Below, one piece after another: positions 120 through 51,795 of a stretch of DNA of 55,594 nucleotides; positions within the stretch are counted from its first letter, which is position 1, and each line of letters opens with the position of its first letter. The notes beneath the pieces are model-generated. The model made no database searches, was not told the origin of the DNA, and saw only the letters and a list, made by a program, of their open reading frames with translations. The position numbers and the translations under genes were made by a program. The DNA is taken from the IMG/VR virus record IMGVR_UViG_3300007770_000016, positions 1-55,594 of that record. One strand, given 5' to 3'. This stretch comes from a virus. Lineage: Duplodnaviria; Caudoviricetes.

Positions 120-2698
120 AACCTGAAATGGTTAATGTCATCACTTCTCTAAATGCTACTAGAGAAGAACCCATACTATGTAAATTTTTATTAGATTCTC
201 TTATTACAAATAATGAACGTATAGAACTACCTCCTAACGTAGGAGTAATAGCACGAATTGCGAAGTTGAATACAGATGGAACTGTAGCAAACGATGTTGC
301 TCGTCGTGATGAGACCGACCCTCGGGGTCCCGGATGGCACCTCGACGGTCGGGATCTCAACATTCGACCCGATTGGGATGAATCAGGAACAGATGATGGT
401 TCAAGTTACAATGTTTGGTATATTCCATCTGGAGACTTTAACCCCCACTACTCTGCTGGTGGAGGGACATTAGCCACACTTAACACTGTAACGGTGGATA
501 CTACACCCGATGTTGGTGGTGTAGATAAAAGACAAAGTGCTTATATCGGTGGGGTTCTTAGGGTATGGAGCACAGACGATTCTATTGTAGAAGAACGAGT
601 CATAACCTCTTATGATGTTAGTGCTGGAACAGTGGGGGTTAGGACAGATTTCTCAAGTGATTTAACTAACGGTTCGGTTAGGTATGAAATAGTCCCCGAG
701 TTTATGGGTCATTTGTGGCAAGCAGTTGCTTTAGCTTCCTGTATGAATCTAGGAATTGCTAGAAACATTACCGAAAAACAAATGGTTTACTTAAAAGAGC
801 AATTTGGACTTGCACTACAAACCGCCACAAGACTAGCATCTACAAAAGTATCTGATAAAAGTATTGCTCCTGAAAACTCTGTGCTCTATACAATCCTAGA
901 AAGAATCCGTTGGGGGTTGCCCGATAAAATAGAAGGAGAAATGTCCAACGATTACATTATGAGATCGGTAGTAAACCCCAAACTAGCGGAAGTAATGTCT
1001 CTAGTAAACGGAAGAAGCGACTCTCCCATAATTATTAGTCAAGATATCACCTTCACTGCAGCTCAAGAGCACTACGTCTTACCTCCTTGTGTTTCTAAGT
1101 TATTAAGGATTTCACTGGTCAATTCTACTACAGGATTAATAACAAGCGAAGTTAGACAAAGAGACGAAAACGATCCGAACGGGAACGGTTGGATGGTTCA
1201 GGGTAATAGACTCTCTGTCCGACCAATACCTTCCACAGCATCCAACACTTATGGAGACACCACCACATCTGGTGGGTTAACAGGTTATAAAATCTGGTTC
1301 ATTCCTAGCGGAGACTTTATGCCTCACTACGCTAACGATGGAACAATAAACAACGCGGGGAAAACAGAACTTAAACTAACGAGTGGGGGGTTATTCTCTA
1401 GACAGTTAGGTATCGTAGATAAGAGATCTAATTCTTATGTTGGTGCTCAAATCAGAGTATTCGAGAGTGATGGTTCAATTTCAGAGAGAGTTATTACAGC
1501 ACATGATCCTACAGCAGAATCCTCACAAGGAACGATTACAGTTTCGGAAGCGTTTACATCGGCCAATACTACGGTTGTTTCTTATGAAATTGTTGCACCT
1601 TGGATGCACACAATAATGAGTTCGGTTGTGACTAGAAGTATATTGGAACTTGTTACTTTGAAAGCACAACTTCCCGAGTCTGATCTTGCGATTCTTTCTG
1701 AATCGGCTAAATCTTCTCTTACTTCTGCTATTGCTATGGTTAGGGAAAAGAACGCCCAGGAAATTGTTCCAAATAAAGATTCCGTGTTGCACATGATTCT
1801 TGAAAAAACCAAGACCATAATTGGAGATGTTGCAAGGGAATTGGATTATTCGGACGATTATATTTTTAGGCACGGTATCGTACCTGAGTATAGCAGAGTC
1901 ATGTCTAGGATTCAAAATACCTCAAGTGATTATATCATTTCAAAACATAATTTTACTCTTGTAAAAGACCAACAGTATTACCAGTTACCTGCATCCATCG
2001 GAGAAATTGTGAGGATAGTCTCTATGTATGATGACGGGAGGATTAAAAAAGAAATGCTTCCTCGTAGTCAGTATAGTGATAGAGGTCCAAATTGGTCTCT
2101 TGAGGGTAGCAGACTAGCAATACGACCTTATCCAACAGGAGTAGATACTGATACCTATGAAATTTGGTATATACCAACACACGACGCTAAACCTCATTAT
2201 GCAGAAGACGGTCTCTTAGCTGTATCAGGTAAAACTATTACTTTGTCTAAAACATCGGGTGGGTGGGCTTCTCAAATTTTAGGAGACATAGATAGGAGAG
2301 ATCAAATCTATGTGGGCTCTACAGTTAGAGTATTAGAGGCTGCTGGTATTATTGAAGAAAGAGTAATTACTGCTCATTCTCCAGAAGCCGAGACTGTAAC
2401 AGTTGATTTACAATTTAATGATGAGGAGTCTGTGGGTAAAGACATTATCTATGAAATTGTACCTACTCATTACGGTGCAGTAACAGAAGCAGTTGCTCAA
2501 GGTGCAGCAATGAATCTTCTTGTAGGGGCTAGAAAAGTAACAAAGGCACAACATGTAATGTTGTTGTCTAATTTTAAGTCTGCAATGAAAACCGCTATGG
2601 ATCATTTCACGTTCATGCAAAATCGTATTCCCAAAAAGTATGATAGAGACACAGTAGATAATAAAAACAGGCACGGTGGTCTGTATGGCATTAGGTAG
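5..2698 (+). CDS. Putative head-tail adaptor / tail ring protein built from three tandem ~295-aa repeats
   Basis: Three copies of W(Y/F)IP..D..PHY, D(K/R)R...Y(I/V)G...RV and ERVIT. Lies between the capsid and nozzle genes. Confidence 0.6.
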
Positions 2699-3314
2699 TA
2701 CACTTCCTGATTTAGGTTCACAACTTAAAGATTTCTTAGCATCAATCGGAGTAGATCACACGTGGTCTTCTCGTATGCAGGGAGACTACTTTCGGGGGTT
2801 TGCTGGAGAAACAATCTGGCCGGGTTGGATAGAGTTAAAAACTTCTGATCCTCCAATTGGGATCAGTTACCCCAACCACGCCTTCCCCTCACAAATAAAT
2901 AATGTAGTCACAAATGAATTTGCAGGTGCCATTACTAATATATTTAATCTTCCTCCTATTCCCAATCAACCGGGTCCAATTGGACCAAAGGGAGACACGG
3001 GTGAAACGGGTCCAGTTGGACCCATTGGCACCGTAGGTCCAGCCGGTGATACGGGTCCAACTGGATCAACGGGTCCCGCAGGTTCAAGAGGCTCTGCTGG
3101 TAAGCGTGGCCCGGTCGGTCCTACGGGTTCTACTGGTCCAATAGGTCCTGTAGGAAGCACCGGACCAACAGGTTCGACTGGTCCTACAGGCTCGACCGGT
3201 CCGACTGGAAGTACTGGTCCTACAGGAAGTACAGGTCCTCAAGGTTCGACCGGTCCACGAGGATCAACCGGTCCCGCTGGAACTCCCCCCTATTGTTCTG
3301 GAATTATTTCATGA
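2685..3314 (+). CDS. Collagen-like (Gly-X-Y) fibre protein A
   Basis: Long [10 protein letters not shown] repeats; the ATG at 2685 overlaps the end of the upstream gene. Confidence 0.8.
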
Positions 3315-5743
3315 CCTCATTATGGTCTAGAGCAGCATATAATATCTCCTTATCTCCAGATGAATTAGAAAGGAGAGAACGAGGATTTTTAATAGGTAAA
3401 GAAACCTCTCTTTCTCCTATGATTGGCATGGCAGGAATTCCATTCTATAGATCCCAACAACCAGCAGCGATAGCAACTCCAATTATGGAAACGAGGATAG
3501 AGAACCTATTTCCTTCAGATGAAGATATGCCTCCTCCCAACATCTACGGTGATCCCAATAAAATTTCTCCTACGGGTTTCACAGGACCAACCGGACCTAA
3601 AGGTTATGATGGGCCTATAGGACCTCAAGGTGGAATTCTCGGTGTAGGATCGACCGGCCCAGTCGGACCAAGAGGAGACATAGGAGATTCTGGTGTAGAG
3701 GTTGGTCCGGATGGTATTACAGGACAAATAGGCCCCACAGGTAACATCGGACCTGTTGGATCAACAGGAAATACAGGCCCAAGACGTACTGGTCCTAAGG
3801 GGGATACAGGACCAAGAGAAACGGGTCCAAGGAGAACAGGCCCGGTAGGATCAACAGGTCCCCGAGGCGATATAGGAACTTCCGGTCCCCCAGAAGATGC
3901 CACATGTAATTGTTGTATAGAGGCCAGCGATTCACCCGGATCAGATGTGTGGGTTTCTTTCCCAGACCCTACATATCCAACAGCACCCGGATTTCATGTA
4001 TCGGGTAAGAGTTGGGGTTATATGCTCTACTATACCCACACAGACGGAAAAAATTATTATCTAGATGGTGGTTATATTCCAGACAATGGGAGTGGGGGTG
4101 GAATGCTGGCAGACAATATAGCCACAGATTTTACTACGTCAGAGTGTGAGACAATGGGTGCCTACCAAAAAGGTATTGGACTCTGGCTAACATCTAACCG
4201 ACTAGACGGGTTTGGGATTTGTGGGTGTACCACATGTGATACTAATAGAATCTCAGCACTTGCACTTTTAAATCCTACCGACCACACTCAAGCCCACACA
4301 GCACTTACAAAAACAGAAAATTCTCAGGGTAGATTTATAGTTGGAGAATCTAGGGGTTGGGCAGGATGGGACTCAGACGGATACACTAACTATTGCAGTT
4401 GTGAAGAATGTAGTGGTGGTGATTGTTATTGGAGTTGTGTAGGACAACCCGCTTGTGAAACAGACTTTGTACATGATTGTGATTGTAATTGTATCCCGAA
4501 AGATATGATTGTTCCTTTACTAGGTGACGGAACTTGCCACGACGGAACAATACCCGTCGTTTATGGAGGAGAAACATATACTCCAAACCTCAAATGTTCT
4601 AACTGGAATTGTGATTCTCCCTACGACAACATAAACTCCTCCGATTTTGATTGTCCTGATTGTTATGGTGGATGTTGTGATGACGAAGAAGGAAATCACG
4701 TATGGCCCATATTCATGCGTGGTGGAGCCGGGAAGGAAAAAGATGGAACAATAATGGTAAGACCGGGAAGTACTTTTTGCTCCTGTAATAATAATTGGTG
4801 TTGGAGCAGAGGTAAACGGCAATCAGAAGCAAAGAGTGAGGGGTATTGGGAATCCGAAAATTATAGATATATGGACAACCTAGATCATTACTTTTCACCT
4901 CTTGAAGGTGACACAATCGTACTTCCCGCAAACGTTGGTTGGTTAAAAAGAACCGACAACGACATACTAGGTGTACTAACAGAAGGAGAATACACTTCAG
5001 AGGATTATGGAGTGGGAGGTGCATTCATCTTTGACGACTTCTCATTCTCAGGTGCCGGTTGTCCTGGCACTTCTAGGGATGCTTCTTCGGGGACAAGTAG
5101 AAAACCCTTCCCTCACTTAGTCATGAACGGAAACAAAATTTGTAAAAAAGCAAAGGACGCATTAAACACATTAGGAATTACTCCTCCAGTAGATTCAAAA
5201 ATTAAAGTGATGGTGTTAAGTTTATGGACAGTTATTAAACCCATTAGTGACGGTGCTTGGTGGGAAGTACCCGCAGGTTGGGAGACTGAAGCATTGGGTA
5301 CTGGGGGAGGCTCAGACGCAGCGTGGCACACTAGAACAGAACACGTTAACTCTCAATTACAGATGGAAGTAGACATGTCATTAGATAACGCAGGAGATAA
5401 CTCTGCACCTTGGAATGCCGTTGCGGGTGGTGATCGGGGTGTAGGTGAAACCGAGATATTTAATATTTGGCATTGGTTAGATGGAAGAAACTTAATTTCC
5501 GCTCCGATTGGTTATACCGATGGGGATTGGCATCCTCACTATTGCTATGGTGTCAGTGATGCAGGAGGTCTACCCACCAGACTTTGTTCCTCTCGTATGG
5601 AAGATAGATTCGAAGCCTTTTTCGAAGGCTACAAAGGCCCAAACGATAGTGTTCAAGTTTGGGATTTGAAATCAAATGCTGAGTCAAACTTCCAATACGT
5701 TACTGTTACGGACTATACTATAGATTCATGCTGTATAGAATAA
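3311..5743 (+). CDS. Collagen-like fibre protein B with Cys-rich C-terminal region (probable fibre/receptor-binding protein)
   Basis: Gly-X-Y run of about 100 aa followed by many CxC/CC/CxxC motifs; ATGA coupling at 3311-3314. Confidence 0.75.
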
Positions 5744-5752
5744 GGAAATAAT

Positions 5753-6823
5753 ATGTCAATACATCAAGCACAGAAGAACGAGTTTCCCATTAAAAGGGAT
5801 CCTTCCCTACCACCACCCCCACAGAACCCGTACGAAACCGTAGCAATCCAAAGAGTTGTAGATTTAGAATTAAAATTCGAAGAACGCCTAAGAGAGATTA
5901 ACGGCACTCTTTTAGCTCTCGCCACCCACATCGAAAGTTTATCAACCCCCACTCAATCTAAGGTTTCACGGGAAGTAAGGAGGGTGTGGACCCCCGAGAA
6001 ATCCGATATGTTGTTGTGGAAGACAGATAAAGTGGGGGTTTCTTGGGATAACCACTATAAGGGAAGCAAGATATTTCTCGTGTGCGGAGGCCCCTCACTT
6101 AGCGACACTGATTTGTCGCTAATGGATAACCGTGGTGTAATGAGTATGTGTATGAATAATTCATGGTGTATGGTTAAGCCCGATATATGGATAGGATTTG
6201 ATTCTCCGGGAAGATTCCATAATGGGGGGTGGGAAGATCCTTCTATTATGAAAATAGTTCCGTGGCAAAGAAGAGAGGAAAAACTAACTCATAGAGTAAA
6301 CGGGGAATTACAACCTTCAGATTTGACCCCTTTAGATATGCCTAACTGTTGGATGCTCTCAAATAATACGACCTTTAATCCGGATACGTGGTTCACCGAA
6401 AAGTCTGCGAATTGGGGGGGTCCTATAGAAGGGGTAGAACCCGAGGGGGGATTCCGTGTAACTATGTTTGGGGCGTTAAGAACTCTTTATTATTTAGGGT
6501 TCCAAGAGGTTTACCTTTTAGGGTGTGACTGGGAGATGCCTACAGATATGAGTAAAGAAGCTTATGCGTGGGAAGAAAACAGAGCCCAGTCTGTAAGAGA
6601 AAAGAATAATGATATGTATCGGTGGTTAGAGGGAGGACTTAAAAAACTTCTACCGGGATTTGAGAGAGCAAATTTCCAAATCTACAACTGCAATCGAAAC
6701 TCTAAACTTTCTCTGTTCCCTTTTATTCAATACGAGGATGCAATAGAAAGATGTTCTATTCCTACACCTACTAACACTCGTGGTTGGTATGATATTCCTA
6801 ACAATAGGGACACTGAAAAATGA
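5753..6823 (+). CDS. Glycosyltransferase-like protein (Maf/DUF115, CstII-like fold) with N-terminal coiled coil
   Basis: Motifs IFLVCGGPSL and GFQEVYLLGCDW resemble GNGPSL and GYKEIYLSGIDF of CstII/Maf proteins; SD AAGGA. Confidence 0.65.
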   Translation: MSIHQAQKNEFPIKRDPSLPPPPQNPYETVAIQRVVDLELKFEERLREINGTLLALATHIESLSTPTQSKVSREVRRVWTPEKSDMLLWKTDKVGVSWDNHYKGSKIFLVCGGPSLSDTDLSLMDNRGVMSMCMNNSWCMVKPDIWIGFDSPGRFHNGGWEDPSIMKIVPWQRREEKLTHRVNGELQPSDLTPLDMPNCWMLSNNTTFNPDTWFTEKSANWGGPIEGVEPEGGFRVTMFGALRTLYYLGFQEVYLLGCDWEMPTDMSKEAYAWEENRAQSVREKNNDMYRWLEGGLKKLLPGFERANFQIYNCNRNSKLSLFPFIQYEDAIERCSIPTPTNTRGWYDIPNNRDTEK

Positions 6824-7410
6824 AACCTTTAATAGTTTCATTTCATACAGGAGAGGATCGGTACGTAAAGGGGGCAGAAAGAATGCGTTCTTCAGCAGAA
6901 AAGTTTGGGTATGAAGTGCACATAGAAGAGATTGAAAGTGAACTTAACTGGACTAGGGCGTGTTGCCTTAAACCCTCCTTTATGTTATCCGTAATGGACA
7001 AATTAGGACCTCGACCCTATCTATGGGTAGATTGTGATGGGGAGATTATTTCACCCCTAAGTCACCTTGAAAACCCCCGCTTTAATTTTGCTGTTCCTTG
7101 GGATCCTCACCTTCGATTTACCTCCTTTTCTTCTGGTACCACCTATTTCGATCTGCGGGATGAAAGAGCATTAAACCTTATGAGAGAGTGGGGGGTTGAA
7201 TGTGATAAGGTGATTAGAGGAGATGCACCTGAAGAATGGGATCAAAGGGTTTTATTTAGGGTTTGGAATAACATGGAAAGAATTCCTATAACAAAAGTAT
7301 TGGGGCAGGGTTATGTTAAAATCTTTGATAGAGGTTGGAGAGAAGGGGCTACTAGAGTAGAATATGTAAGACATCATCAATTTTCTAGGCAAATTAGGAA
7401 AATTAAATAA
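6820..7410 (+). CDS. GT-A fold nucleotide-diphospho-sugar transferase
   Basis: LKPSF, DxD motif (LWVDCD), SSGT and WDQ motifs. Confidence 0.7.
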   Translation: MKPLIVSFHTGEDRYVKGAERMRSSAEKFGYEVHIEEIESELNWTRACCLKPSFMLSVMDKLGPRPYLWVDCDGEIISPLSHLENPRFNFAVPWDPHLRFTSFSSGTTYFDLRDERALNLMREWGVECDKVIRGDAPEEWDQRVLFRVWNNMERIPITKVLGQGYVKIFDRGWREGATRVEYVRHHQFSRQIRKIK

Positions 7411-10400
7411 TGAACGAACGAAAGATTAAGTGGAATTATAACCTTGTAGGGACTTCCGAAGATAAATCAGGTACACGTACCTCTACACCTAGCAAGTCTT
7501 CCTACGAGGTGGTGGGTGTAGATATGTCTGTTAGGGGAGGCATTAGACCTTTTCCGGGATTTAAAAAAGTACATACTTTTACTTCTTTAAGAACGGAAAC
7601 TAACCATTCTTCTGCGTCCGAGGTTATAGATGTCTTCCCAATATCTTTTAGGGTAGGAACGGATCAATTTGGATATGGATTTGTTTATAGAGCAAAAAGA
7701 CCTGGGGATACTTCTGTATCAGATATTTATATGGACTATCGTATAGAAGGTAAAGATTCTGGTGCTTGGACCACAGGAGAAGATATTAAATTGGGGGTTG
7801 CTACCTCTGCACCCATGGATGTAGTTGTCTTTGGTAGATATGTCTACGTACTTGTAAAGGGAGAAGAACCTATTTTATTCTATGTGGGATATGGAGTATC
7901 TGCTGCTGCTGCTGGTTCTGTAACGATAGAGGCTTTTGGGAGTATCACAAAAGGTACACCCTCGACAGCTGATTTGGTAGTTGTTGATTACACTGCAATT
8001 GATACCGCAACACCAGATAATTTTAAGTTGAATCCTACAGATGGATCTGGGGTAATGACTTTTGAGGCTTCCGCTACAACTACAGACGCTACACATTTTA
8101 AAGTAGAACTCTCTAACGCCCAAACCGTAACAAACATTAGAACTATGCTACAACTAGCGGGGAATGAAAAATTTAATGCTGGACTACCCTCAGGATCAAC
8201 TATAACTATTTCCCAAAATGTTGGGGGTACTGCGGGAGATAAAGCAAATTCGACCACCTGTGCAGCGGGAATACTTACAATTGCAAACTTCACAGGGGGA
8301 GCCGGTACTGCAGATAGTATAGTACTTAAAAATACTGTTGGGCAATCTCGTATTATTCACGCGGGAACTGAAAATGAAAATTTCTCAACGAATAGTGTCA
8401 CGGATTATGCTGCCTTCAAACCCGAAACCGATAATCCCACAACCGCTACTAATCTCGCAACTGTTGTAAATGCACACACTAACTTTACAGCTTCAGAGGG
8501 ACAAAACTCTGTAAATATTAGTCAAGCCACAACTTCTATAAACGGTAATCAAGTTATAGGTTTAAATCTCACAGTTTCTACGTGTATAACCAAAGTAGAT
8601 TTTGAGGGAGGGGCAGGTGCGGGGTACGGAACTGATTACTTAAGAGTCATAGAAACCGATACTGGTCCCGGTTTACAACCCCCACTAATATCCCCTAATG
8701 ATACGGATGTAACCACTGTTGGTGCTTTAGATGTGTCCTCTGCTAGTTACCCATCAAATGCACAGGTGTTTACTGCTCAAACCGTAGGAAGTCACTGGTA
8801 TGCAACACCTGAAGATATGGACAATGTTGCGGATTTAGATAGTGGTGGTTATGGTGTTGCCTATTATCTAGAGGATCCCGATACAGGTAGAAAGACTAGT
8901 CTGTCTAAAGTTGCTATGGTTAAACCAGAAAATCTTGTGGAGAAAGCAACGGGCTCTATTACTTGTTTAGATAATGCCGAACAAAACTATGATGGGAAAA
9001 CTATCACTATTAAAGACCATGTGGATTATCCAGATAAAGGTAAACAGGTTGTATTTACTATAGATAGTGACACCTCGGGCACTGCTGTTAAAGTTTCTGA
9101 TACTTCATACACGATTAAGATTGATGGTGCTGCGGATAAAGAAGCAGTTGCTGCTCTTGTGCACGCAGGTATTGATCTTGCACACACCAATAACGATTTA
9201 AATATAACCCCCACTTATACAGCATCTACCGATGTTATTAACTTAACACACGATAAAGGTACTTTAGATGGTAATGCGACCATAAGTACGAGTGGGGGTG
9301 CTGTGTTTACAGTTGTAGGTATGACGGGTGCTGAAAATTTCGATCCGGGATATATTGGCCTTGAAATTGTTTATGACTCTACTAAATTTACAAAGGCTCG
9401 TATATTTAGATCGGTTAAACTTGAAGACGCTGGGGGTTCTTATGTAGCATCTGTAGTTCAACTAGATAAAATTATTACCCTTCAAGATTATTGGACTACA
9501 AATCAAGACGACCCAAGTACCGGGCTTCCTTTTGAAGATACAGCGGATGCCTTCGAAGATTATCGAAGGGCTATTTATTACTTTAGACTTTCGGATCTTG
9601 CTTTAATTTATCAAGATCCTTATGTAGATAGATCTATCTTTGATGAAAACATGTCAAAGGCTGGAACCGGAATTGAATTTGACGGAATACTTATTACTTC
9701 AAATTCATCTGGGGATTCAGGTTCTTCTCAATCAGATGGAGATAGTTCTACCGATAGGTTTAGGGGGGTAGGAGAGTTTCGTTGGTCTTCAATGGCTGAG
9801 TCTTCCCCAGAATTATTTCCACCCGAGAATTACTTTGTCCCTTCTAAAGTCTCTAATCATGTAGTTACATTTGAACGAAGTGCCGGAGCAGTTTTAGGAT
9901 TTGCAGAAAATATTATTATGCATATCTCCCGAGAGTTTACAGGTAATATCTCTTACATGAAAATCCTTCCTGTTCATGAAGGATATGGGATTGTAAATAA
10001 GAGAGCAACCGAGAGCGTTGGGCCCTTTACTTACTATATTAATAATAAAGGAATGAAATCTATAGATGCTCAGGGCAGACTAGATAGTTTACATGCTATA
10101 GATAAATTAGTGGAAGAGTGGGGGTCTGAGTATGGTTCACTTAGTATGGGGTACGACTCAGAATCTTCGGTGTTGTTTATTTTAAATTCGGCTCAGAAGA
10201 AAGCTGCGTGTATGTGGTTCAGTACTTCTTCGGTGTCTGAATTACATGATCTTCCTTTTGATTTAGTTAAGACAGGGGAGTGGCCTTCGGATTTAAATGA
10301 CCAAAATAGCGATTTAACGCAGAGAGCATTCTTCTTACAAAACGCTCCTAACCTTTCAGATACTCCTGCCCACTGGAGCCCTTGTGTTTGGATAGCAGAC

Positions 10401-14946: not shown

Positions 14947-15263
14947 TGGATTGGAAAAAGATTTCTCGAAAGTTAGTAGAAGACCATAAAGATAAAGGTT
15001 CTTCTATTATAAATTTAACCCCCCACTCTAAAGGGGGTGAGGTTGTTAATTTATCTACAGATGACTTTTGTTTAGAACTTACCGGGAAAGAACTATCTAC
15101 TAAAAAGGTTAGAAGGTTTTTGTGGGAGAATCGAAAGAAGAGGGCCCTCAACAGAAAACACGGAATCATCTGGTCAGCATACCTTGAAGATGAAGATAAG
15201 TCCTATGTTGGAGTGGGGGCTATTACAGACCCAAAAGTTGCAGCACGCATGGAAGGTAACTAA
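14946..15263 (+). CDS. Hypothetical protein
   Basis: TAATG-coupled at both ends. Confidence 0.6.
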   Translation: MDWKKISRKLVEDHKDKGSSIINLTPHSKGGEVVNLSTDDFCLELTGKELSTKKVRRFLWENRKKRALNRKHGIIWSAYLEDEDKSYVGVGAITDPKVAARMEGN

Positions 15264-35098: not shown

Positions 35099-35380
35099 TT
35101 ATTCCTCAAATTTTTCAAGATCATCTTCGTATTCCATGAACGCTTCGATGCTTGCTACTGTGTCTGCTATATCCTCCATCCTTAGAGTGGGGGGTTTAAC
35201 TATTATTGGAACATCTTTAAAGTGTTGTATGTAAGTAGACATCCGATTGTAATCAAGTTTTGCTCTTATTATTTGATCGGTTACTTTTTCGATTAATTCA
35301 AGCATTTCTTCTTTTTGCAGTAAAAGATTATCAATTTCAGCTAATAATATTTGTACTTCGGGATGGTCACGGAGATTCAT
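35099..35380 (-). CDS. Hypothetical coiled-coil protein
   Basis: 93-aa ORF between the UDG and polymerase genes. Confidence 0.6.
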   Translation of the reverse strand: MNLRDHPEVQILLAEIDNLLLQKEEMLELIEKVTDQIIRAKLDYNRMSTYIQHFKDVPIIVKPPTLRMEDIADTVASIEAFMEYEDDLEKFEE

Positions 35381-36824: not shown

Positions 36825-37253
36825 TTATAGCAATTCTCGAAGGTGATTTTGCATACGAAGATCTCGTACTCCTTTGTCGAATTTTTCTAATGAGTAGTTT
36901 AAGGTTCTTATTTTTAGTCCTATATGATCTTTGAGATCGTTTAGAGTGATACGGATGGGTACTTCACCTTCTGGTGTATCGGTGAATAAGAATCCTACTC
37001 CTGCATCGAAGAGTGCGTTTAGTCTGTAATGCCATTCAAGTATATTTGAAGGCTTAAGTGTTGATAAATGTACAAAGTCTGAGCAGGTTGCTAGAGCTTC
37101 TGTTACAGGGGATAGTTTACAGAACATATCTTCTGTGGCCTCAAACCATCCATCCTCTTCATTGAGTGGGGGTTCTGTGGTATACTCCCAACAGACACGG
37201 TCTGAATTTCTTATTCGACTAATATCTATATCGTATGATTCATTTTCAAACAT
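36825..37253 (-). CDS. Hypothetical protein (likely leaderless)
   Basis: TATAAT-AAAACT-ATG at 37265-37251. Confidence 0.6.
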   Translation of the reverse strand: MFENESYDIDISRIRNSDRVCWEYTTEPPLNEEDGWFEATEDMFCKLSPVTEALATCSDFVHLSTLKPSNILEWHYRLNALFDAGVGFLFTDTPEGEVPIRITLNDLKDHIGLKIRTLNYSLEKFDKGVRDLRMQNHLRELL

Positions 37254-38949: not shown

Positions 38950-39245
38950 TTGTTCTCCTTTGGTTTTTGCCAGTCTGCTAGGGTGCATCGTGTGTTATCA
39001 CTCCATGGTTTCGCTCGTTCGAGGTCATCTAATAGAGTGGGGGATGATCTAGCAATTTCGATTGCTATTTTATTTGTTATCTCTTCGAAGTATTCGAAAT
39101 CTACTTCTTCGAGAATCGATATTATTGTGTCTAGACGTTCATCTGTTAGTGTGGAATCATTTAGTGCTTCCCACACTTCGGTTGCGGTTTTTCCTTCTTC
39201 TAACATTGTTTCGATTGTTTCGATTGCTTCTAAGGGGTTTTCCAT
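38946..39245 (-). CDS. Hypothetical acidic early protein
   Basis: SD GGGAG; very Glu-rich. Confidence 0.55.
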   Translation of the reverse strand: MENPLEAIETIETMLEEGKTATEVWEALNDSTLTDERLDTIISILEEVDFEYFEEITNKIAIEIARSSPTLLDDLERAKPWSDNTRCTLADWQKPKENK

Positions 39246-39728: not shown

Positions 39729-39731
39729 GGT

Positions 39732-40202: not shown

Positions 40203-40598
40203 CTACACCTTCTTTGATTTCTTTCGTAGTAGTTGTATTAAACATCCAATTACCTGAACGCTTGGGTCTTTCCATGATTTTTCTATTGCTGTTGAAATAG
40301 CATTTGTACTCTTGTTGTTCAAATGAAGATTCATGTTGTTAACCCATTTAGGTACTTCCTCTAATGCTTCTTTTAGGGTTGAAATGGTTAGAGGGTTTAT
40401 ATCGTTGGGTGATTCAAAATCATCGTGTTTGTTAGAGGCTAAAGTTATAACCTCCAATGTTATATCTTTATTAGTGGGGGTTACTTCCATCACTAATACA
40501 TACGATTCTATACGTGTTTGTAGGAGTACTTTACCTGAGGAAAGTATACTTATACTTCCTTCTATTTCACCCTTTTCTAGTTCTTCTATGCAGTTCAT
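40203..40598 (-). CDS. Hypothetical early protein
   Basis: SD AAAGGA before the ATG at 40598. Confidence 0.55.
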   Translation of the reverse strand: MNCIEELEKGEIEGSISILSSGKVLLQTRIESYVLVMEVTPTNKDITLEVITLASNKHDDFESPNDINPLTISTLKEALEEVPKWVNNMNLHLNNKSTNAISTAIEKSWKDPSVQVIGCLIQLLRKKSKKV

Positions 40599-41505: not shown

Positions 41506-41597
41506 TTTGTTTTACTCCTATGTAAATGTTAATATTGAGTATTGTAATTTGATAACGAATTCAAAAAACGAAAAAGAATACACCCAACAACGATGTT

Positions 41598-42552: not shown

Positions 42553-42564
42553 CTCCTTCTGTGT

Positions 42565-43971
42565 TTAACACAAGTCTTCAAACTTTTTACGTAGGCTTAA
42601 ACCTTTTAAGCCCCTCTTACCCCCATGCGGTCTGTGTCTATTTACGGTCCAACTACTTTGCATCTCTATCTTTATCGACAATTGATTCCTTGCGACATGA
42701 ACATTCTTAATCGAATTCGATTTTAACCAGTCTTTCCATTGCATCCACAACAAATCCGTAGCAACAAACCCCCCCTCACTTCTTATAAACCTCTCCTCTA
42801 AAAAATGATCGAACGGATTATTCTGAAGATGATACATCTGCACCGCATCTTCAGATTGTGACAACATAGGGAACCTTCCCCCTACTCCACCTTCTAAATC
42901 AATAGCCCCTTCTACCGCCCACGCTGCGATCCCCTCCAACTCTCCAATCAACGTATCAATCAAATATGGATCTTCCTTCCCCTCAAAACTAACATTAAAT
43001 GGTAACACTAACATCTTAGATGACAGTCCCCTACCCTTATTAGGCAACTGCGGAATCTCATTAGCCTGAACAATCGGTGCAGCATTCAACACGACATTTC
43101 TCATCTGTCTCTTATATTTCACATTAACAGTAACGGGGTCCTGACCAATAATGTTCTTTAACACCCGTGTAGCCTTCTCACCCTCCCTCCCATTCAACTC
43201 ACTAACCTCACTAACACAAAGCACCCTAGAATGCTCCAACCCATCCAACCCAAAACTATCACTTAAATCATCGAGACTAGTATTCATAAACCCATCACCC
43301 CCCAACAATCTCTGCAACACCTTCCCAATAGTGCCCTTACCACTCCTAACCTTCCCATACATAAGTAACCATCTAGCATGTCTCCTATGGTTCATCAAAC
43401 AATAACCCATCCATCTCATCAACAACATACTCCACTCCGGATCGTTGTCCCCCCACTCTTCTAAGCACTTCATCCATCTCGGGCACTCAGCACCCGGATT
43501 ATAGCTTACAGGCAATATTACCGGATCAAACCAATCTTCCGTTCTCTCCATAACTTCACCCGTCTTCGCATCCACAAGTTTATCTTGAAACGCAATTACA
43601 CTTCCCGCATCCTTTCCCGGATTATCCAACCACAACGGTATATTAGAGTGGGGGATTCTTACCCTCGCTGCTAAACCTCTCACGATATTATCTATCTTTT
43701 GTTTGTTAGGTGCGACCCTACGAATACGAGGGATGCCGTCTGTGCCCATGTCTTGGTAATGAGCATCTTCAAGTTCTTTCCAACAAAGATCTTCTACCCA
43801 CTCCTGATCTCGTCTTTCCCAACGATCCCCGTACCATTGGTAAAAGTCTCCGCGGAAAGCCCATAAACCCGTCTTACCGTTAGGTGTACGAAATACACTT
43901 CTTAAAAGTGCGTCTGCTATCTTCATGGGTTCTACGGAAGTTAGTGGTTGGTCTTGAGTTCCAACTGTCAT
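42565..43971 (-). CDS. D5/P4-family SF3 helicase (primase-associated type; no primase domain apparent)
   Basis: Walker A GKVRSGKGT, VSEV, LKNIIGQD.V....KY, ANEIP motifs; probable C-terminal winged helix. Confidence 0.88.
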   Translation of the reverse strand: MTVGTQDQPLTSVEPMKIADALLRSVFRTPNGKTGLWAFRGDFYQWYGDRWERRDQEWVEDLCWKELEDAHYQDMGTDGIPRIRRVAPNKQKIDNIVRGLAARVRIPHSNIPLWLDNPGKDAGSVIAFQDKLVDAKTGEVMERTEDWFDPVILPVSYNPGAECPRWMKCLEEWGDNDPEWSMLLMRWMGYCLMNHRRHARWLLMYGKVRSGKGTIGKVLQRLLGGDGFMNTSLDDLSDSFGLDGLEHSRVLCVSEVSELNGREGEKATRVLKNIIGQDPVTVNVKYKRQMRNVVLNAAPIVQANEIPQLPNKGRGLSSKMLVLPFNVSFEGKEDPYLIDTLIGELEGIAAWAVEGAIDLEGGVGGRFPMLSQSEDAVQMYHLQNNPFDHFLEERFIRSEGGFVATDLLWMQWKDWLKSNSIKNVHVARNQLSIKIEMQSSWTVNRHRPHGGKRGLKGLSLRKKFEDLC

Positions 43972-44061
43972 TGGTGTATCCTTTACATAAGTGACTAATC
44001 AAAAACCCCCAACTATTCAGTTTCGGTTTCGATTTGAAGATTCAATAAAGGATTTACTGTA

Positions 44062-46349: not shown

Positions 46350-46911
46350 ACAATTTTACATAGGGTTTGGATCGGGAATTAAACTTCTCTCGGAAGATTG
46401 GTACATCAAAGAGTTCGGAACAGAAATAACAAAGAAATCTTTCCGGTCATTCTGTAGAGCATTAGGAGTCCCGTTAATAGAAATTGGTAAAACTACCTTT
46501 ATCGAAATGCACTCATTCCAACTTGCACTCAAAGCCATTACTAGAGTGGGGGAATCAGATTTCTATGTATCGGGGTGTCAGTCTATAGCAACGGGTAAAA
46601 AAAGAGCTTCGAAGTTAGATCCTGAATATGTATCTAAAAACCTAGAACCTTTACTTTGTGAGTTAATGGCCTGTAAGGCTATGGGCGGTCTCAACATGAC
46701 AGCAGAAACTAAAACTGCAGCAAGGGTTGCTGCAGAACGAATGGCAAGAGCGGGCATAGCAGAACTTGCGGGAGAATTACAGAAGAAACATAGGAAGAGG
46801 TCAATTCGTATTTTCGGAGATGTGACCGCTAGACCTAATAGTATATTGGATATTTATGAACAAGAAGATAACGAAGAAGACACAGGGAACGATACAGAAA
46901 GTAACGGCTGA
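46339..46911 (+). CDS. Hypothetical, possibly DNA-binding protein
   Basis: 190 aa; upstream of the terminase genes. Confidence 0.55.
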   Translation: MGTEQFYIGFGSGIKLLSEDWYIKEFGTEITKKSFRSFCRALGVPLIEIGKTTFIEMHSFQLALKAITRVGESDFYVSGCQSIATGKKRASKLDPEYVSKNLEPLLCELMACKAMGGLNMTAETKTAARVAAERMARAGIAELAGELQKKHRKRSIRIFGDVTARPNSILDIYEQEDNEEDTGNDTESNG

Positions 46912-47281: not shown

Positions 47282-47612
47282 ACTAGATAAGACTTCTGAA
47301 AGGGCTGTTCTCACATTAAAATCTTTAGATGTTATGGAGTTCCTACAAATTGCAGCACCTGCTATTAGGGACTTGGGGATTTACAATATAGACGGTTGGG
47401 CGGGAAGTTTCGATTCCTTATATAAAGAAATTTTTAATTCCCTATTTGATAAAGATAGAAATTTATACCCTCACTGGTATCCCGTAGTATTGGAACTTAA
47501 ATCTAATTCTGTTTGTGCTGGGGATCAAAAGATGCTTGCTGCTGCAATTGCTAGGGTTGGTGCAACCTATGCATTTGTAACTATTTCTATGAACAGGAAT
47601 AACACCGAATAA
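47193..47612 (+). CDS. Hypothetical protein
   Basis: SD GAGGAG; TAATG-coupled to terL. Confidence 0.55.
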   Translation: MTKSKTKTKRKPTTKSSKPKPEVVKIKVPKLDKTSERAVLTLKSLDVMEFLQIAAPAIRDLGIYNIDGWAGSFDSLYKEIFNSLFDKDRNLYPHWYPVVLELKSNSVCAGDQKMLAAAIARVGATYAFVTISMNRNNTE

Positions 47613-49549
47613 TGTTATGGGTTCCTAAGAAAGATAACCCTTTTTATCCTCTTCCCGTAGATTATCCTACCTTAAGTTTAGAGGGTCAAAGACAAGCAAG
47701 AGTAAATGCTTGTCGTTTGTGGACCACAAAAGATAAGACCCCCACTCAAATAGCTGAGGCGTTTGCTGCTTCAATGCGTTTCTTTGATATGTGGTATCTT
47801 CATGCAGACAAAGAAGTAAATTTTGATCCTCTTTTTTATGATGACGATCCCCTAGTAACTCCCGAATTTCATTACGATATTTTAAAACAATGGGCCGGCT
47901 CCCCTCGTAATATTTGTATTGCACCACGGGGCTCTGCTAAATCATTCTTAGTTCGCAAGGCATGTCTCTTAAGAATGATATCCCGACCAATGTTTACAAT
48001 TCTTTATGCTACATCTACAAGTGATAACGCTAGGGGTACAGGGCAATGTCTTAAAGATCAACTCCAACACAATCAAAGACTTCACGATGATTGGAATCCG
48101 GAGTTCCCAGATAATCGTCTTGTCCCTAAAAGAGGTGAAGCACCCTTCGGAACTGAGATGATGCAACTAAGAAATGGTAGTTGGCTCAGAGCAATCTCCG
48201 CAGAATCAAGACAACGTGGTGGACGACCTAGACGATACGTATTGGATGACCCCGAATATGACCCAAAAGCATCAACATCAATGTCACTCATCCGACAGTA
48301 TATGGATGATCTTCTTTTCAAAGTGGTTCTACCTATGGTTATGCGTGCAGGTTGTGGTGTGGATTGGTTGGCTACTTTTGTATCTCGTCGTCACTATGCT
48401 TGGCATGCCCTACAAACTGAACCTAATCTCGAAGGAGAACAAGTAGCATCAGATCCTAGATTCAACTTGTGGTCACGAATGATTGTTCGTGCTGCGTACG
48501 AAGGAGATAAGGGAGAGTTGATATCTTGTTGGCCCGATATGTGGCCTCCCACTATTAAGGAAAAAGAGGCAAATCCTCGGTGGAAAGATAGAGTTTCCTT
48601 AGAAGAAATACGTGAGATCATCGGAACAACCAACTTCTTAGCAGAATATATGGCTAGACCCGGTGAGGGGGAAGGTACATACTTCCCCCACCTCACAAAG
48701 GAAAGACACGGTTGGTGGCTAGAAGATGTTGATCCTGTATTGGAACTAAACCCCCGCCTAAGTAATACTTTAGTCTGTTGGTATTCTGGAGAAACCTTAG
48801 TAAAGAAGAGGATGTGTGAGTTTCTACAATTAACTAGAATATTCATGACTGTTGATACCTCCTTTACCGCTACAGCAGATTCCGACTATAAGGTCGCATG
48901 TGTAATGGGGATTAACTCAGACAACGATTTATTTGTATTAGATCTTTGGTCTGCTCAATGCAGAGAAGACGAACTAATCAAACAGGCTATGAAGTTAGGG
49001 GATCACTGGAAAGTTCCAACAATCCACATTGAAGCGATAAAACAAGGATTAGGTATATATAACACCTTGGATTCCCTAGTTAGAACCCGAGCGAAAGATA
49101 TGATGGATGTTCAGCACCTCCCGGGAATTAAGAAATTAAATCCGGGAATGATCGAAAAATCTACGAAGATAGCCAGTCTCTCACTAAGATTCGAACACAA
49201 TAAAATCAAAGTCCCCCTATGGAAAAGTGGGGGTTCTTTTAGAAGACTAAAAGACCAGATAGAACAATTTAACCCCGATGCTAAAGACGGAGGTCTACAG
49301 CACGATGACGAACTAGACTGCGTATGCATGTCCCAATTTGTTATTAAAGGTAGATTGTCTCAGGTGGTTTCCGTAGAATTACCAAATAAAACACCGTTAG
49401 AGAGGTTAAAGGATGGAGAATTAAAGAATGAATCTACGGGTACTTATATAGCCCACTCTATTGATTGGAGTAAAATAGCAGTATCAGATATTCAAGAAAT
49501 TTTAGATAGGAACATCGCTGATGATACCGACAACACCACAAGAATATGA
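47612..49549 (+). CDS. terL: Terminase large subunit
   Basis: APRGSAKS (Walker A variant), RGGRP..YVLDDPE (Walker B), RNase H-type nuclease TVDTSF ... HDDELD. Confidence 0.9.
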   Translation: MLWVPKKDNPFYPLPVDYPTLSLEGQRQARVNACRLWTTKDKTPTQIAEAFAASMRFFDMWYLHADKEVNFDPLFYDDDPLVTPEFHYDILKQWAGSPRNICIAPRGSAKSFLVRKACLLRMISRPMFTILYATSTSDNARGTGQCLKDQLQHNQRLHDDWNPEFPDNRLVPKRGEAPFGTEMMQLRNGSWLRAISAESRQRGGRPRRYVLDDPEYDPKASTSMSLIRQYMDDLLFKVVLPMVMRAGCGVDWLATFVSRRHYAWHALQTEPNLEGEQVASDPRFNLWSRMIVRAAYEGDKGELISCWPDMWPPTIKEKEANPRWKDRVSLEEIREIIGTTNFLAEYMARPGEGEGTYFPHLTKERHGWWLEDVDPVLELNPRLSNTLVCWYSGETLVKKRMCEFLQLTRIFMTVDTSFTATADSDYKVACVMGINSDNDLFVLDLWSAQCREDELIKQAMKLGDHWKVPTIHIEAIKQGLGIYNTLDSLVRTRAKDMMDVQHLPGIKKLNPGMIEKSTKIASLSLRFEHNKIKVPLWKSGGSFRRLKDQIEQFNPDAKDGGLQHDDELDCVCMSQFVIKGRLSQVVSVELPNKTPLERLKDGELKNESTGTYIAHSIDWSKIAVSDIQEILDRNIADDTDNTTRI

Positions 49550-49841: not shown

Positions 49842-51795
49842 CGAACACGCAGACCGTGAGGAGTCACGACTCTCCTATCGTCGTATTATGTGGCTTCTTG
49901 CTTGGCACTACTTATGTGGAGCTCGTCGCTTTGATGTTTTCGATCCTCATACTGGAGCATTATCCCCCCACTACTTAGATGAAGAGGGGAACATGGAATA
50001 CCAATCCCAAGAGATGCTTTCCGCAATTGATAAGGTTTCCTCTAGATTATCCTCCCTAGATCTAAGACCTAAGATTATTCGTAAGGGAGTATCTCTTAAT
50101 AGTATACGAGAAAGAGCAATCGGACAGATCGTAATGGATCATGTCATTCCTCAGGATCAACTAGAAAAAGTAAAGACTAAGTTTGCTCACCTATTCACAT
50201 CTTTAGGTTCTTGTGGTTTAGCGGGACATATCACGGACTCCCCCACTATCGGATTAACTGCGGATCTAGAAGTGATTCATCCAAGAGAATTATTTCCCTT
50301 CCCGTCACTAGGTACAGACTATACAAAAGCTCGTGGGATAATGAGACAACGTACGGTTCCTCTACATTTTCTAGAAGAGATGTTTGGTAAGAAGTTAAAA
50401 AGAAATCTGCAGAAGATGGAGTGGTGGGAACAAACCATAGGCGAAGCAGATGATGAACACGGAGGATCGGATAGTGGTCCTTCGTCCCAAAGCGGTCAGG
50501 ACATTAAGTACTGGAGTGACACATCTCAGGGTGGTGCACGACCATCAAAGCAACACGCGTCAGTAGTAAAAATTCGAGAGGTATGGCTATATGGAGTGGG
50601 GGAGACAGTATCAAGATATGTAGTTACTAGTGGAGAACACGTACTTCACGATGAAATATTTGAGGAAGAAGTATATTGTCCTGTCGGATTCGCTAGGTTT
50701 ATGGAGAACGGTACGTTCCACGGTTCTGGGTTATTTGATCTTCTCTTTAGTTTGAATAGAGAAATGGAGAGATTGATGAAGTCTCTCTTTAATAACGTAA
50801 GGGACATTGACAGGTATGGGGTATTAGTTATGCCTCAGGGTCAATTTAATGACCGTGCTATGTTGAGAGACGTAGGGCAGGGACTTAGAGTTTTACCGTT
50901 CGAGCCTGATCCTGTTGTGGAGACATTCCGGCCCTTTAATATTACTCCGCATAATGCTGGGGATATCCCGGGTAAAACGGCTGCCTTTGCTAAAGATTTA
51001 ATGGATAGGATGAATCCGGTACAAGATCTCATTAAAGAGAAGGGTCGTGTAGATTCTGCTGCGGGTCTATCGTTCTTAGATGAGCAAATTAATAAATCTA
51101 TGACTAATCCCAGTAGAGGAATAGAACAAGCATTCGGGAGTTGTTATAAGTCTGTATTAGCGGGAGCAATTAGAACCTTAATGGAGTCACCTGTAGCAGT
51201 TCCCGTTCAGGATCTCTCGTTAGAAATGGCGGGAGCAATTATTGATGTAGAGAAAAGTGAGATTCAATTCCAAGGTTCAAATCCTCTTCCTTCTCTAAAG
51301 AATATTACTTTGACTATTAAAGAGACTAGCCCTCGTTCTATGGTGGCTAGAAAACAAGAAGCCCTAGAAATGTTAAATGCGGGGATTGCGGATCCTGACT
51401 CTTTTAAACTCTTAGTGTTAAAGGAAGGATTGGATTTTGCGGTTTGGTTGGACGAAGAGAAATCTGCTTACGATATGATTGTACGTAATTGTTTGGTTCT
51501 ATACGGTAACGGACAAGATCCGGGACAAGTTGTTTTAACTCCTCATACCGCAAGACCTGAATTTCAATTAAGAGTTTTGATTTCATTCATGAGTGGTCCA
51601 CTTATGAGTATATCTAGTACCGAAGTACAAAATGAGTTTATTAAACTTAAAGAGTTTATGATGCAGTCTATGGGTGTTATGATGCCCGAAGGAGTACCAT
51701 CACCAATGGAGGCTGCTATGATGCAACAACCACAAGAGGGTATGGATATGGGTCAAGGTGGCCCGATGCCGTTCCCACAACAAGGAGCCATGTAA
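49783..51795 (+). CDS. Portal protein (podovirus type)
   Basis: 670 aa after terL, with a Q/M/P-rich C-terminal tail. Confidence 0.75.
   Translation: MALDTIQLPKNPKDLARVIDEHADREESRLSYRRIMWLLAWHYLCGARRFDVFDPHTGALSPHYLDEEGNMEYQSQEMLSAIDKVSSRLSSLDLRPKIIRKGVSLNSIRERAIGQIVMDHVIPQDQLEKVKTKFAHLFTSLGSCGLAGHITDSPTIGLTADLEVIHPRELFPFPSLGTDYTKARGIMRQRTVPLHFLEEMFGKKLKRNLQKMEWWEQTIGEADDEHGGSDSGPSSQSGQDIKYWSDTSQGGARPSKQHASVVKIREVWLYGVGETVSRYVVTSGEHVLHDEIFEEEVYCPVGFARFMENGTFHGSGLFDLLFSLNREMERLMKSLFNNVRDIDRYGVLVMPQGQFNDRAMLRDVGQGLRVLPFEPDPVVETFRPFNITPHNAGDIPGKTAAFAKDLMDRMNPVQDLIKEKGRVDSAAGLSFLDEQINKSMTNPSRGIEQAFGSCYKSVLAGAIRTLMESPVAVPVQDLSLEMAGAIIDVEKSEIQFQGSNPLPSLKNITLTIKETSPRSMVARKQEALEMLNAGIADPDSFKLLVLKEGLDFAVWLDEEKSAYDMIVRNCLVLYGNGQDPGQVVLTPHTARPEFQLRVLISFMSGPLMSISSTEVQNEFIKLKEFMMQSMGVMMPEGVPSPMEAAMMQQPQEGMDMGQGGPMPFPQQGAM

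Follow-up and report, generated by a model that had tools for sequence, protein, structure and literature searches.

A selected G-rich word dispersed through the genomes of an uncultured marine phage family, possibly a Chi-like signal

Why does a single G-rich octamer, AGTGGGGG, recur throughout a phage genome on both strands? The window analysed here, 55,594 nucleotides, is a complete, circular-mapping genome from an uncultured marine phage family and is probably circularly permuted. The data examined are assembled contigs, and the terminase large subunit (TerL) served as the handle for orienting and collecting relatives. Exact matching over the whole window gave 41 copies, 26 on the + strand and 15 on the - strand, in full agreement with the positions and strands of the preliminary description. 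The copies are as follows, where a pair is back-to-back (CCCCCACT...AGTGGGGG) unless stated otherwise.

442..449, -, left of pair with 631 (189 bp)
631..638, +, right of pair with 442
1382..1389, +, exact match
4091..4098, +, exact match
5946..5953, -, left of pair with 6031 (85 bp)
6031..6038, +, right of pair with 5946
7187..7194, +, exact match
8679..8686, -, exact match
9208..9215, -, left of pair with 9291 (83 bp)
9291..9298, +, right of pair with 9208
10117..10124, +, exact match
12979..12986, +, exact match
13402..13409, +, exact match
15020..15027, -, left of pair with 15212 (192 bp)
15212..15219, +, right of pair with 15020
16987..16994, +, exact match
19326..19333, +, exact match
19481..19488, +, exact match
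22841..22848, -, left of pair with 23298 (457 bp)
23298..23305, +, right of pair with 22841
25374..25381, -, left arm of hairpin (9-bp stem) with 25411 (37 bp)
25411..25418, +, right arm of hairpin with 25374
27385..27392, +, intergenic, exact match
28934..28941, +, exact match
29767..29774, -, exact match
31615..31622, -, exact match
32818..32825, -, left of pair with 33139 (321 bp)
33139..33146, +, right of pair with 32818
35186..35193, +, face-to-face with 35537 (351 bp)
35537..35544, -, face-to-face with 35186
37165..37172, +, exact match
39036..39043, +, intergenic, exact match
40473..40480, +, exact match
43450..43457, -, inside helicase gene, left of pair with 43647 (197 bp)
43647..43654, +, right of pair with 43450
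46545..46552, +, exact match
47739..47746, -, exact match
49226..49233, +, exact match
49965..49972, -, 182 nt into the portal gene
50240..50247, -, left of pair with 50595 (355 bp)
50595..50602, +, right of pair with 50240

The octamer is the commonest 8-mer of the genome, at one copy per 1.35 kb. Its expected count on both strands is 0.71, 1.49, 1.67, 2.19 and 4.18 under Markov models of orders 0, 1, 2, 3 and 4, respectively; at orders 5-6 the expectation is inflated by sub-words of AGTGGGGG itself. Dinucleotide shuffles of the window (n=100) contained 1.63 copies on average and 5 at most. Synonymous-codon shuffles (n=200), which preserve all protein sequences and the codon usage gene by gene, yielded a mean of 4.76 copies (sd 1.62, maximum 10), and thus the enrichment persists under the null at which the preliminary description had allowed that it might vanish. 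The word is indeed read in all six frames (sense 8/4/11, antisense 2/9/5, with 2 copies intergenic), and it uses the minor codons GGG (17% of Gly) and GTG (13% of Val). Its specificity is sharp, all 24 one-mismatch variants being at background with 0-5 copies each. GTGGGGG without the leading A, earlier seen only once, occurs twice, at 5816 and 48685 on the - strand.

The octamer count stands, but the octamer is not the whole unit: flank preferences among the 41 copies (G at -1 in 28, T or G at +8 in 33, T at +9 in 26) extend the full site to approximately GAGTGGGGG(T/G)T. The 9-mer GAGTGGGGG is present in 28 copies.

Comparison with relatives demonstrated purifying selection on the sites. Among the sites that could be aligned, 18/23, 8/18 and 7/20 were conserved. 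This is 3-4 times the rate of other aligned 8-mers (13-18%) and exceeds that of the sites' own flanks. The total count is alike in a relative (41 versus 40), which points to site turnover under selection for density. The selected DNA-level signal proposed earlier is therefore upheld by the codon-preserving null, by site conservation above flanks and by presence across the family. Sub-lineages use the variant words GAGTGGGGG, TAGTGGGGAA, AGCGGGGAA and TCTGGGGG, which are 1-2 nt apart; on the Sak4 tree each of them corresponds to a single clade. GTG is missing from the AGCG and TCTG variants. Family sites run 9-11 nt, that of G311 being CTAGTGGGGAA. One word persists across phages of 38-55% GC, and the relative at 55% (G007) carries a copy at the same offset in the portal gene as the window does.

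The 26:15 strand ratio equals the GC-skew prediction for a word with six Gs (expected 1.55-2.11; binomial P 0.5-0.9), so enrichment is about equal on the two strands (26 versus 0.5-1.3 expected on +, 15 versus 0.24-0.86 on -), and the strand skew noted previously is explained by base composition alone. The reported absence from the capsid region is likewise within chance, since the motif-free stretch, 5,322 bp when the map is closed to a circle, has P=0.58 for 41 random points. No end-clustering of sites was found. In all 14 strand rows, gaps between same-strand copies vary less than under random placement, 4 of the rows having P<=0.05; on the + strand of G000 the gap CV is 0.54 versus 0.95 for random placement (P=0.0005). 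Mean same-strand spacing is ~2.1 kb (+) and ~3.7 kb (-). Back-to-back pairs closer than 500 bp number 9 versus 3.0 expected (P<2e-4), whereas close pairs in other orientations are depleted (4 versus 9.5 expected), 35186/35537 being the only face-to-face pair below 500 bp. The back-to-back excess was not seen in G310 or G311. The hairpin at ~25374-25418, where two convergent gene blocks meet, has a DNA fold of -12.6 kcal/mol (z -3.0), and pairs of similar spacing are present in G001 (37 bp) and in the distant G009 (40 bp).

The phage genes relevant to reading such a word are as follows.

27935..28831, -, Sak4-like annealing protein / AAA_24 (own recombination module)
29243..30523, -, PD-(D/E)XK (RecB/Cas4-type) nuclease
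32191..32697, -, ERCC4-type nuclease
32694..32963, -, tandem HTH protein, 89 aa
32960..35095, -, family A DNA polymerase
42565..43971, -, D5-like SF3 helicase (D5_N + DUF5906 P-loop; Pfam/PHROG scans), without primase domain
47612..49549, +, terminase large subunit

The function that we tentatively favor is a Chi-like one, in which the word would signal a host end-processing helicase-nuclease to stop and recombine. Known Chi sequences are 5-8 nt long, and AGCGG, contained in one family variant, is the Chi of Bacillus subtilis. As a short, G-rich, asymmetric word, the motif resembles the Chi sequences listed in PMC8022716, where candidate Chi motifs of Enterobacteriaceae vary as the family variants do. 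The closest known systems are the Chi-rich phages (LLS of E. coli, MD8 of Pseudomonas and other lambdoid phages without Rec modules; PMC12315714, PMC3784561). Such phages have been described in hosts ranging from Providencia to E. coli and have the host Chi as their commonest octamer, with 23 copies in LLS (one per 1.86 kb) and 32 in MD8 (PMC12315714). They share with the present phages (i) a G-rich asymmetric octamer that is commonest or near-commonest, recurring every 1.4-1.9 kb or so and far more often than chance predicts, (ii) its location within genes, and (iii) its difference between related phages. There are also differences. Abundant Chi goes with a missing recombination module in lambdoid phages (PMC3784561, PMC12315714), whereas here a Sak4-like protein and PD-(D/E)XK and ERCC4 nucleases are encoded. 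Sites in Chi-rich phages run 7:1 to 32:0 one way (20:3 in LLS, 32:0 in MD8) near one end, whereas here they are even, on both strands and without polarity beyond composition. Their word is a known Chi of a known host. The present sites, at 9-11 nt, exceed the usual Chi length. The back-to-back pairs are a further difference and have no obvious Chi rationale. Thus, the Chi-like option of the preliminary description has the best precedent, but the polarity, end-clustering and missing Rec module of that precedent were not found.

Several further results bear on a host reader. Of the 13 phage proteins that the second GAGT-carrying clade (clade A) also has, none tracks the motif class; the comparison leaves out the helicase, which has no coverage in that clade. 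This result argues for the Chi-like reading, as do the single-clade variants 1-2 nt apart, the constancy of one word across GC contents, and site conservation with similar totals. Other searches argue against it: across 301 Cyanobacteriota genomes, the density of the 9-mer nowhere came close to that in the phage (0-7 copies, mostly 0-2, in genomes of 1.6-2.3 Mb), the one MAG with a related TerL contig had no enrichment (42 versus 145 for the mirrored control), and two IMG/VR pattern scans (108 loci) revealed dispersed enrichment only in this phage family, these scans being of low power. Also against it, the distance from sites to the ends of blastn HSPs with three relatives is no smaller than expected by chance.

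A phage-encoded reader is nearly as likely as a Chi-like host reader. In its main form, which we rate as a lesser possibility, each copy would be a directional replication start, either for loading of the D5-like helicase or for a primer- or nick-derived 3' end; same-strand arrays would be lagging-strand starts at Okazaki scale, and back-to-back pairs bidirectional starts. The even same-strand spacing agrees with this, as does the orientation of nearly all close pairs, in which directional events would diverge rather than collide. The inheritance of the trait along the phage tree regardless of GC content and the family-only enrichment in the low-power IMG/VR scans also fit, and, with fewer than one copy per genome expected, the word would be usable only if selection maintained it. 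T7 and pRN1 primases have template recognition sequences. The word resembles these in being short, asymmetric and read on one strand, and it contains GTGG, reported as an efficient recognition sequence of the NrS-1 primase-polymerase, for which PMC8718748 gives GTGG/GTGA and TTTGGTTA. PHROG families of NrS-1-type primase-helicases match the C-terminal part of the D5-like helicase, a helicase of the primase-helicase kind that, having a conserved basic tail at its C terminus, is a candidate for a reader encoded by the phage. However, neither Pfam and PHROG scans of the ORFs covered nor a six-frame Toprim search revealed a primase domain, in line with the preliminary description; the priming option given there thus keeps the fitting spacing, but no enzyme was found for it. 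Nor was there a conserved unknown core protein large enough, in our judgement, for a typical primase. Two family variants lack GTG, G310 and G311 lack the back-to-back excess, and none of the covered proteins tracks motif class. Known primase sites have cores of only 3-4 nt, strong enrichment as 9-mers is not reported for them, and we know of no precedent for ~40 dispersed helicase-loading sites.

An unlikely variant is a phage-private self marker, by which the phage's own PD-(D/E)XK nuclease and helicase would degrade DNA processively until tamed by the word, so that host DNA without it is recycled and phage DNA spared. This would explain dense, even sites on both strands, inheritance along the phage lineage despite changes in GC content, scarcity of the word in the cellular genomes tested, and the RecB/Cas4-type nuclease in every near-complete relative. 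Against it, the whole-protein similarity of the nuclease does not track motif class, the reading presumes that this enzyme is processive and responds to sequence, and no such system is known to us.

We consider it improbable that the copies bind a phage or host protein that recognises this sequence in duplex DNA and would organise, coat or sequester the genome, or that they act as a decoy for a host factor. The 9-11-bp asymmetric site with graded flank preferences resembles a protein site, and orientation neutrality fits duplex binding; simple binding, however, predicts neither even same-strand spacing nor back-to-back orientation. Here belongs the earlier proposal of the tandem HTH protein as binder. 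Within the replication block this protein evolves fastest (29-39% identity versus 42-67% for neighbours), but its putative recognition helices vary widely among phages sharing GAGTGGGGG (e.g. KNLYHFAKKN, RKRVYDIANRD, KRRAYELAQKL), following phage phylogeny rather than motif class, and it is disfavoured.

Targets of sequence-specific modification or nicking, as in phages with site-specific single-strand interruptions, have similarly little probability. The background level of all one-mismatch variants and the two encoded nucleases would suit them. However, T5-type phages are nicked on one strand only, whereas both strands are equally enriched here; Pfam scans revealed no methyltransferase or base-modifying enzyme, and a mere target needs no ~20-fold or greater enrichment.

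Least probable is a host uptake-like word or a by-product of mutation bias. Uptake sequences occur at ~1 per kb on both strands in taxon-specific 'dialects'. Like the polar chromosome words KOPS and SRS, they are G-rich 8-10-mers scattered through coding sequence in every frame, with lineage-specific variants and densities that reach about one per kb, and in this they resemble the phage word. KOPS and SRS, however, are strongly strand-polar, and uptake sequences belong to competent hosts, are not evenly spaced and give no reason for back-to-back pairs; a marine host that is competent and has such a word is not known to us. Mutation bias can neither conserve sites above flanks nor leave one-mismatch variants at background.

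GAGTGGGGG is a selected asymmetric signal, each strand carrying about one copy in every 2-4 kb. Under the favored Chi-like reading, a host enzyme of RecBCD or AddAB type would enter any free double-strand end and degrade the DNA until, at a correctly oriented copy, it switched to producing a recombinogenic 3' tail. Since a circle-mapping genome without fixed ends could acquire ends anywhere and in either direction, it would need copies at even intervals along both strands, unlike the one-sided, end-clustered arrays of cos phages, and the even same-strand gaps are what such a coverage function needs. With ~40 evenly spread copies under selection, and relatives carrying the word or near variants, the word is a real genome-wide signal of this phage family, and its sites may both protect phage DNA from a host nuclease and promote recombination.

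The octamer AGTGGGGG is the commonest 8-mer in the window, a complete IMG/VR virus record, where it occurs in 41 copies, 26 on the + strand and 15 on the - strand (read there as CCCCCACT), every position listed in the preliminary description being exact. A strong excess of a word is a feature of the Chi-rich phage class, and here the 41 copies compare with 0.7-4.8 expected under five null models: (i) dinucleotide shuffles of the window gave 1.63 copies (maximum 5), (ii) Markov models of orders 0-4 gave 0.71-4.18 copies, and (iii) shuffles that kept every protein and the per-gene codon usage gave 4.76 ± 1.62 copies (maximum 10 in 200 shuffles), so that the enrichment stays under a codon-preserving null. 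Each of the 24 single-mismatch variants occurs 0-5 times. A G-run artefact is ruled out by the observation that AGT precedes 41 of the 104 runs of at least five G, the next commonest prefix preceding only 5. As first proposed, no reading frame is spared: the sense frames hold 8/4/11 copies and the antisense frames 2/9/5, with 2 copies intergenic, and minor codons are used where the word overlaps genes. Peptide or codon bias as the cause is excluded by this codon use together with the codon-shuffle null, and a transcription signal by the intragenic position of 39 of the 41 copies, 23 sense and 16 antisense, in six frames. The site extends beyond eight nucleotides, with G at -1 in 28 of 41 copies, T or G at +8 in 33 and T at +9 in 26; its 9-mer form, GAGTGGGGG, has 28 copies in the window. 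The heptamer GTGGGGG without the leading A, initially counted once, occurs twice.

The word is present in 22 of the 24 IMG/VR loci with a related terminase, at 0.25-0.98 copies per kb, and is absent from the two most distant of them (65% and 57% identity of the terminase large subunit, TerL); 40 copies were found in G001, a 95%-complete relative. Where relatives align at the nucleotide level with 72-75% identity, intact copies of the word are retained far more often than other aligned 8-mers.

Conservation of word sites in three related phage genomes (sites conserved; other aligned 8-mers conserved)
G001: 18 of 23; 17.7%
G002: 8 of 18; 13.4%
G003: 7 of 20; 13.1%

The flanks (±30 nt) of the sites have ordinary identity (69-77%), and sites are both gained and lost among the relatives, the total count being roughly constant. 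These alignments show purifying selection at each site together with selection for density. No mosaic boundaries were found near the sites. The original proposal of a selected DNA-level signal is thus supported by the codon null, by conservation of the sites above their flanks and by the family-wide presence of the word.

More distant relatives were gathered by scans with helicase and Sak4 alignments, and every one of them has its own strongly over-represented G-run word. The main words of the family include GAGTGGGGG, TAGTGGGGA, AGCGGGGAA and TCTGGGGG, and the lineage variants, or dialects, fall into the motif classes GAGT, TAGT, AGCG and TCTG; a whole-word literature search for four family 8-mers found no microbial paper.

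Dialects of the word (word; phages; GC content; observed and expected copies)
GAGTGGGGG; clade of the present phage (G000), G007, G009 and others; 38-55%
(C)TAGTGGGGAA; G311 group; 49-52%; TAGTGGGG, 18 versus 0.9
(Y)AGCGGGGAA; G310 group; 47-50%; AGCGGGGA, 24 versus 1.4
TTCTGGGGGA; G008; 37.5%; TTCTGGGGG, 10 versus 0.45
CTCTGGGGT and TTGGGGGGA; G004 group; 37.5-38%; TGGGGGGA, 15 versus 1.9

The core common to the dialects is approximately [A/T][G/C][T/C]GGGG. In the Sak4 tree, whose row L148 was translated through a stop, each derived word corresponds to one clade and GAGTGGGGG is found in both major clades. Thus, the word is inherited along the phage lineage, persists through large GC shifts and differs between phages whose GC content is the same. 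In the 50.6-kb record G004 (L036-L038), two words are enriched. TCTGGGG(T) occurs 12 times, 11 of these on the terminase-sense strand, and TTGGGGGGA is non-polar, TGGGGGG occurring 19 times over the two strands; runs of exactly six G (23) are more numerous there than runs of five (19).

The word was initially described as strand-skewed, but the 26:15 ratio is that predicted by GC skew for a six-G word (expected 1.55-2.11); therefore, both strands are enriched about equally. Functional strand polarity was dropped on this ground, and the apparent agreement with a lambda-type orientation is void. Among ten family genomes, binomial tests for polarity beyond composition gave P of 0.3-1.0 in eight and 0.05-0.33 in G002, the sole departure being TCTGGGG in G004 (11:1, P 0.007-0.04), and no polarity of the KOPS/SRS type beyond base composition was observed. 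The motif-free stretch noted in the capsid region is likewise not significant (P=0.58).

Spacing on one strand is evener than random, the coefficient of variation (CV) of same-strand gaps being below the null mean in all 14 strand-specific rows from eight genomes, with P<=0.05 in four rows; the rows are non-independent, as G000-G003 are related to one another.

Rows with significantly even same-strand gaps
G000, + strand: gap CV 0.54 versus 0.95, P=0.0005
G310, - strand: P=0.0045
G002, + strand: P=0.013
G311, - strand: P=0.02

The copies on each strand thus have the regular, fragment-scale spacing expected of priming sites. Close pairs across strands are nearly all back-to-back (CCCCCACT ... 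AGTGGGGG). The window has 9 such pairs within 500 bp versus 3.0 expected, a number reached in none of 5,000 permutations, and close pairs of other orientation are depleted (4 versus 9.5 expected). Back-to-back close pairs number 9 in G001 (P=2e-4) and 3 in G002 (P=0.035); no excess was found in G310 and G311, and in G007 and G009 the copies alternate -,+ almost perfectly. Several of the pairs are common by descent and some are confined to a single genome. The pair at 25374/25411 (37 bp) forms a hairpin with a 9-bp stem where the two convergent gene blocks meet, and a similar pair is present in G001 (37 bp) and in the distant G009 (40 bp).

The + strand encodes head, adaptor and tail proteins and the terminase, and a - strand block at 25-44 kb contains the replication and recombination genes. 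Features of the window are:

1-119 and 55476-55594, 119-bp terminal repeat, inside the first gene (5-2698)
32694-32963, - strand, 89-aa tandem HTH protein
32960-35095, - strand, family A polymerase
35367-36122, - strand, UDG-superfamily protein
42565-43971, - strand, D5-like SF3 helicase, without a primase domain in domain scans
25-44 kb block, - strand, ERCC4 nuclease, PD-(D/E)XK nuclease and Sak4-like protein
44062-46137, + strand, large ORF of 691 aa, flanked by the helicase and by the small genes that precede the terminase

Since the end repeat sits within the first gene, the map is circular and the repeat is an assembly overlap, which does not indicate physical terminal repeats. The D5-like helicase and UDG-superfamily protein resemble the D5/D4 pairing of poxviruses. 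The first protein of the window (897 aa) has an SU10-type adaptor domain, and two tail-fibre-like proteins (5-2698 and 2676-5743) contain collagen triple-helix repeats. Few non-structural proteins of the family are conserved as well as a calcineurin-like metallophosphoesterase (52-95% identity) encoded at the end of the tail block (22738-23514). No tRNA genes were found in the window, and a literature search on DUF932 returned nothing on its function.

The phage occurs in public runs labelled as marine or seawater metagenomes. A tblastn search with TerL and capsid against 50,697 phage records gave no match, and the polymerase and helicase have at most 30% identity to those of cultured phages, none of which is close. 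The single GTDB hit is a 3.2-kb contig with a related TerL; the Sericytochromatia MAG to which it belongs shows no enrichment of the word. None of 301 genomes of Cyanobacteriota, the sole phylum sampled, has a phage-like density of GAGTGGGGG. Small genomes of this phylum have 0-7 copies, most of them 0-2; the 8.5-Mb genome G292 has 571 versus 57 for the mirrored control, still about one per 15 kb. Two further genomes contain the word in tandem with an 8-nt period (G166:C4:159553-159585 and G011:C2:101093-101109), and the copies in these three genomes seem to belong to unrelated repeat families. An SD-like sequence lies ahead of 31 of the 59 starts, which is not decisive for the host. Two IMG/VR pattern scans of low power (60 and 48 loci) found dispersed enrichment in this phage family only, the other loci being GC-rich hairpins or tandem repeats. 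The unrelated viral contig L095 (14.6 kb, GC 38%) has 11 copies of GCGGAACT versus 0.33 expected.

The closest precedent for the word is the Chi-rich phages. A Chi site is read by a RecBCD/AddAB-type enzyme of the host, whose nuclease activity alters there, and the word is in excess in the host genome. According to PMC12315714, phage LLS carries 23 Chi sites (on average 1.86 kb apart), 20 of them in one orientation, and phage MD8 has 32, all in one orientation, Chi being its commonest octamer; the class is described there, and in PMC3784561, as being without Rec modules. Chi is known in few species, and candidate Chi words differ by 1-2 nt among related bacteria, according to PMC8022716. In line with the early suggestion of a Chi-like site, the present family resembles this class in the excess of the word, in its asymmetric, G-rich sequence and in its dialects. 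Against it, the family has a Rec module (Sak4-like protein, PD-(D/E)XK and ERCC4 nucleases) and lacks polarity and end-clustering: instead of one orientation concentrated at one end, the copies are two-stranded, evenly distributed, unclustered and back-to-back. By analogy, we tentatively favor a Chi-like signal for a host end-processing nuclease. If genome ends occur anywhere, as circular permutation is assumed to allow, both orientations would be needed everywhere, which may explain the two-stranded layout.

It is possible, though rather doubtful, that the phage itself reads the word as a lineage "self code". The word would then either stop the phage's nuclease in the manner of a private Chi or serve, in dispersed copies, as a directional start of replication by a D5-helicase/PolA replisome that has no primase; the dialects GAGT, TAGT, AGCG and TCTG would evolve together with the phage lineage, whatever the base composition of the host. 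A phage-encoded replication start or loading signal, a somewhat unlikely reading related to the initial idea of priming, fits the spacing and the back-to-back geometry, and the word includes GTGG, a recognition sequence of the NrS-1 primase-polymerase reported in PMC8718748. Unlike the NrS-1 case, no primase was found in the window: Pfam and PHROG scans of its ORFs gave no primase domain, the matches of the helicase to primase-helicase PHROGs are confined to their helicase part, and a six-frame search gave no Toprim domain.

The 691-aa ORF was rejected as a reader or primase: Pfam, PHROG and PDB sequence searches gave no match for it, its Atlas hits were all below threshold, and phages with the same motif bear unrelated ORFs at this place. 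ORFs at the same place comprise 794 (G001), 786 (G002), 1011 (G003), 250 (G004), 643 (G007) and 419 aa (G008); none has a Pfam match, and they resemble one another little or not at all. C-terminal similarity (100-390 aa) was observed only among G000, G002 and G003, and the locus is a hypervariable cassette. The tandem HTH, first proposed as a binder, is a poor candidate because phages sharing GAGTGGGGG (the GAGT class) differ widely in its putative recognition helices, which follow phylogeny; it evolves fastest among the phage proteins compared. As a reader it is disfavored on these sequence comparisons. A site for another duplex-binding protein is improbable. No motif-class tracking was found for 13 proteins of the second GAGT clade, its helicase not being covered: none is closer to its G000 counterpart than those of the AGCG/TAGT phages are. 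A marker for a phage-private nuclease is just as improbable, and so is a nick or modification target; T5-like nick sites lie on one strand, and the word is borne equally by both. An uptake-like word or a mutational by-product is very improbable.

The word is a real, family-wide, evolving, evenly spaced and two-stranded DNA signal under selection, stronger than first noted. If the words mirror host Chi, the Chi dialects of the hosts would be readable from the genomes of this uncultured marine phage family, which would offer a new way of assigning hosts. If the phage encodes the reader, the words would form an evenly spaced DNA code across the genome, co-evolving and serving replication or self-recognition; to our knowledge, no such code has been described for phages. 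Under either reading, the layout sets this family apart from the Chi-rich phages described so far and leads to clear, testable predictions.
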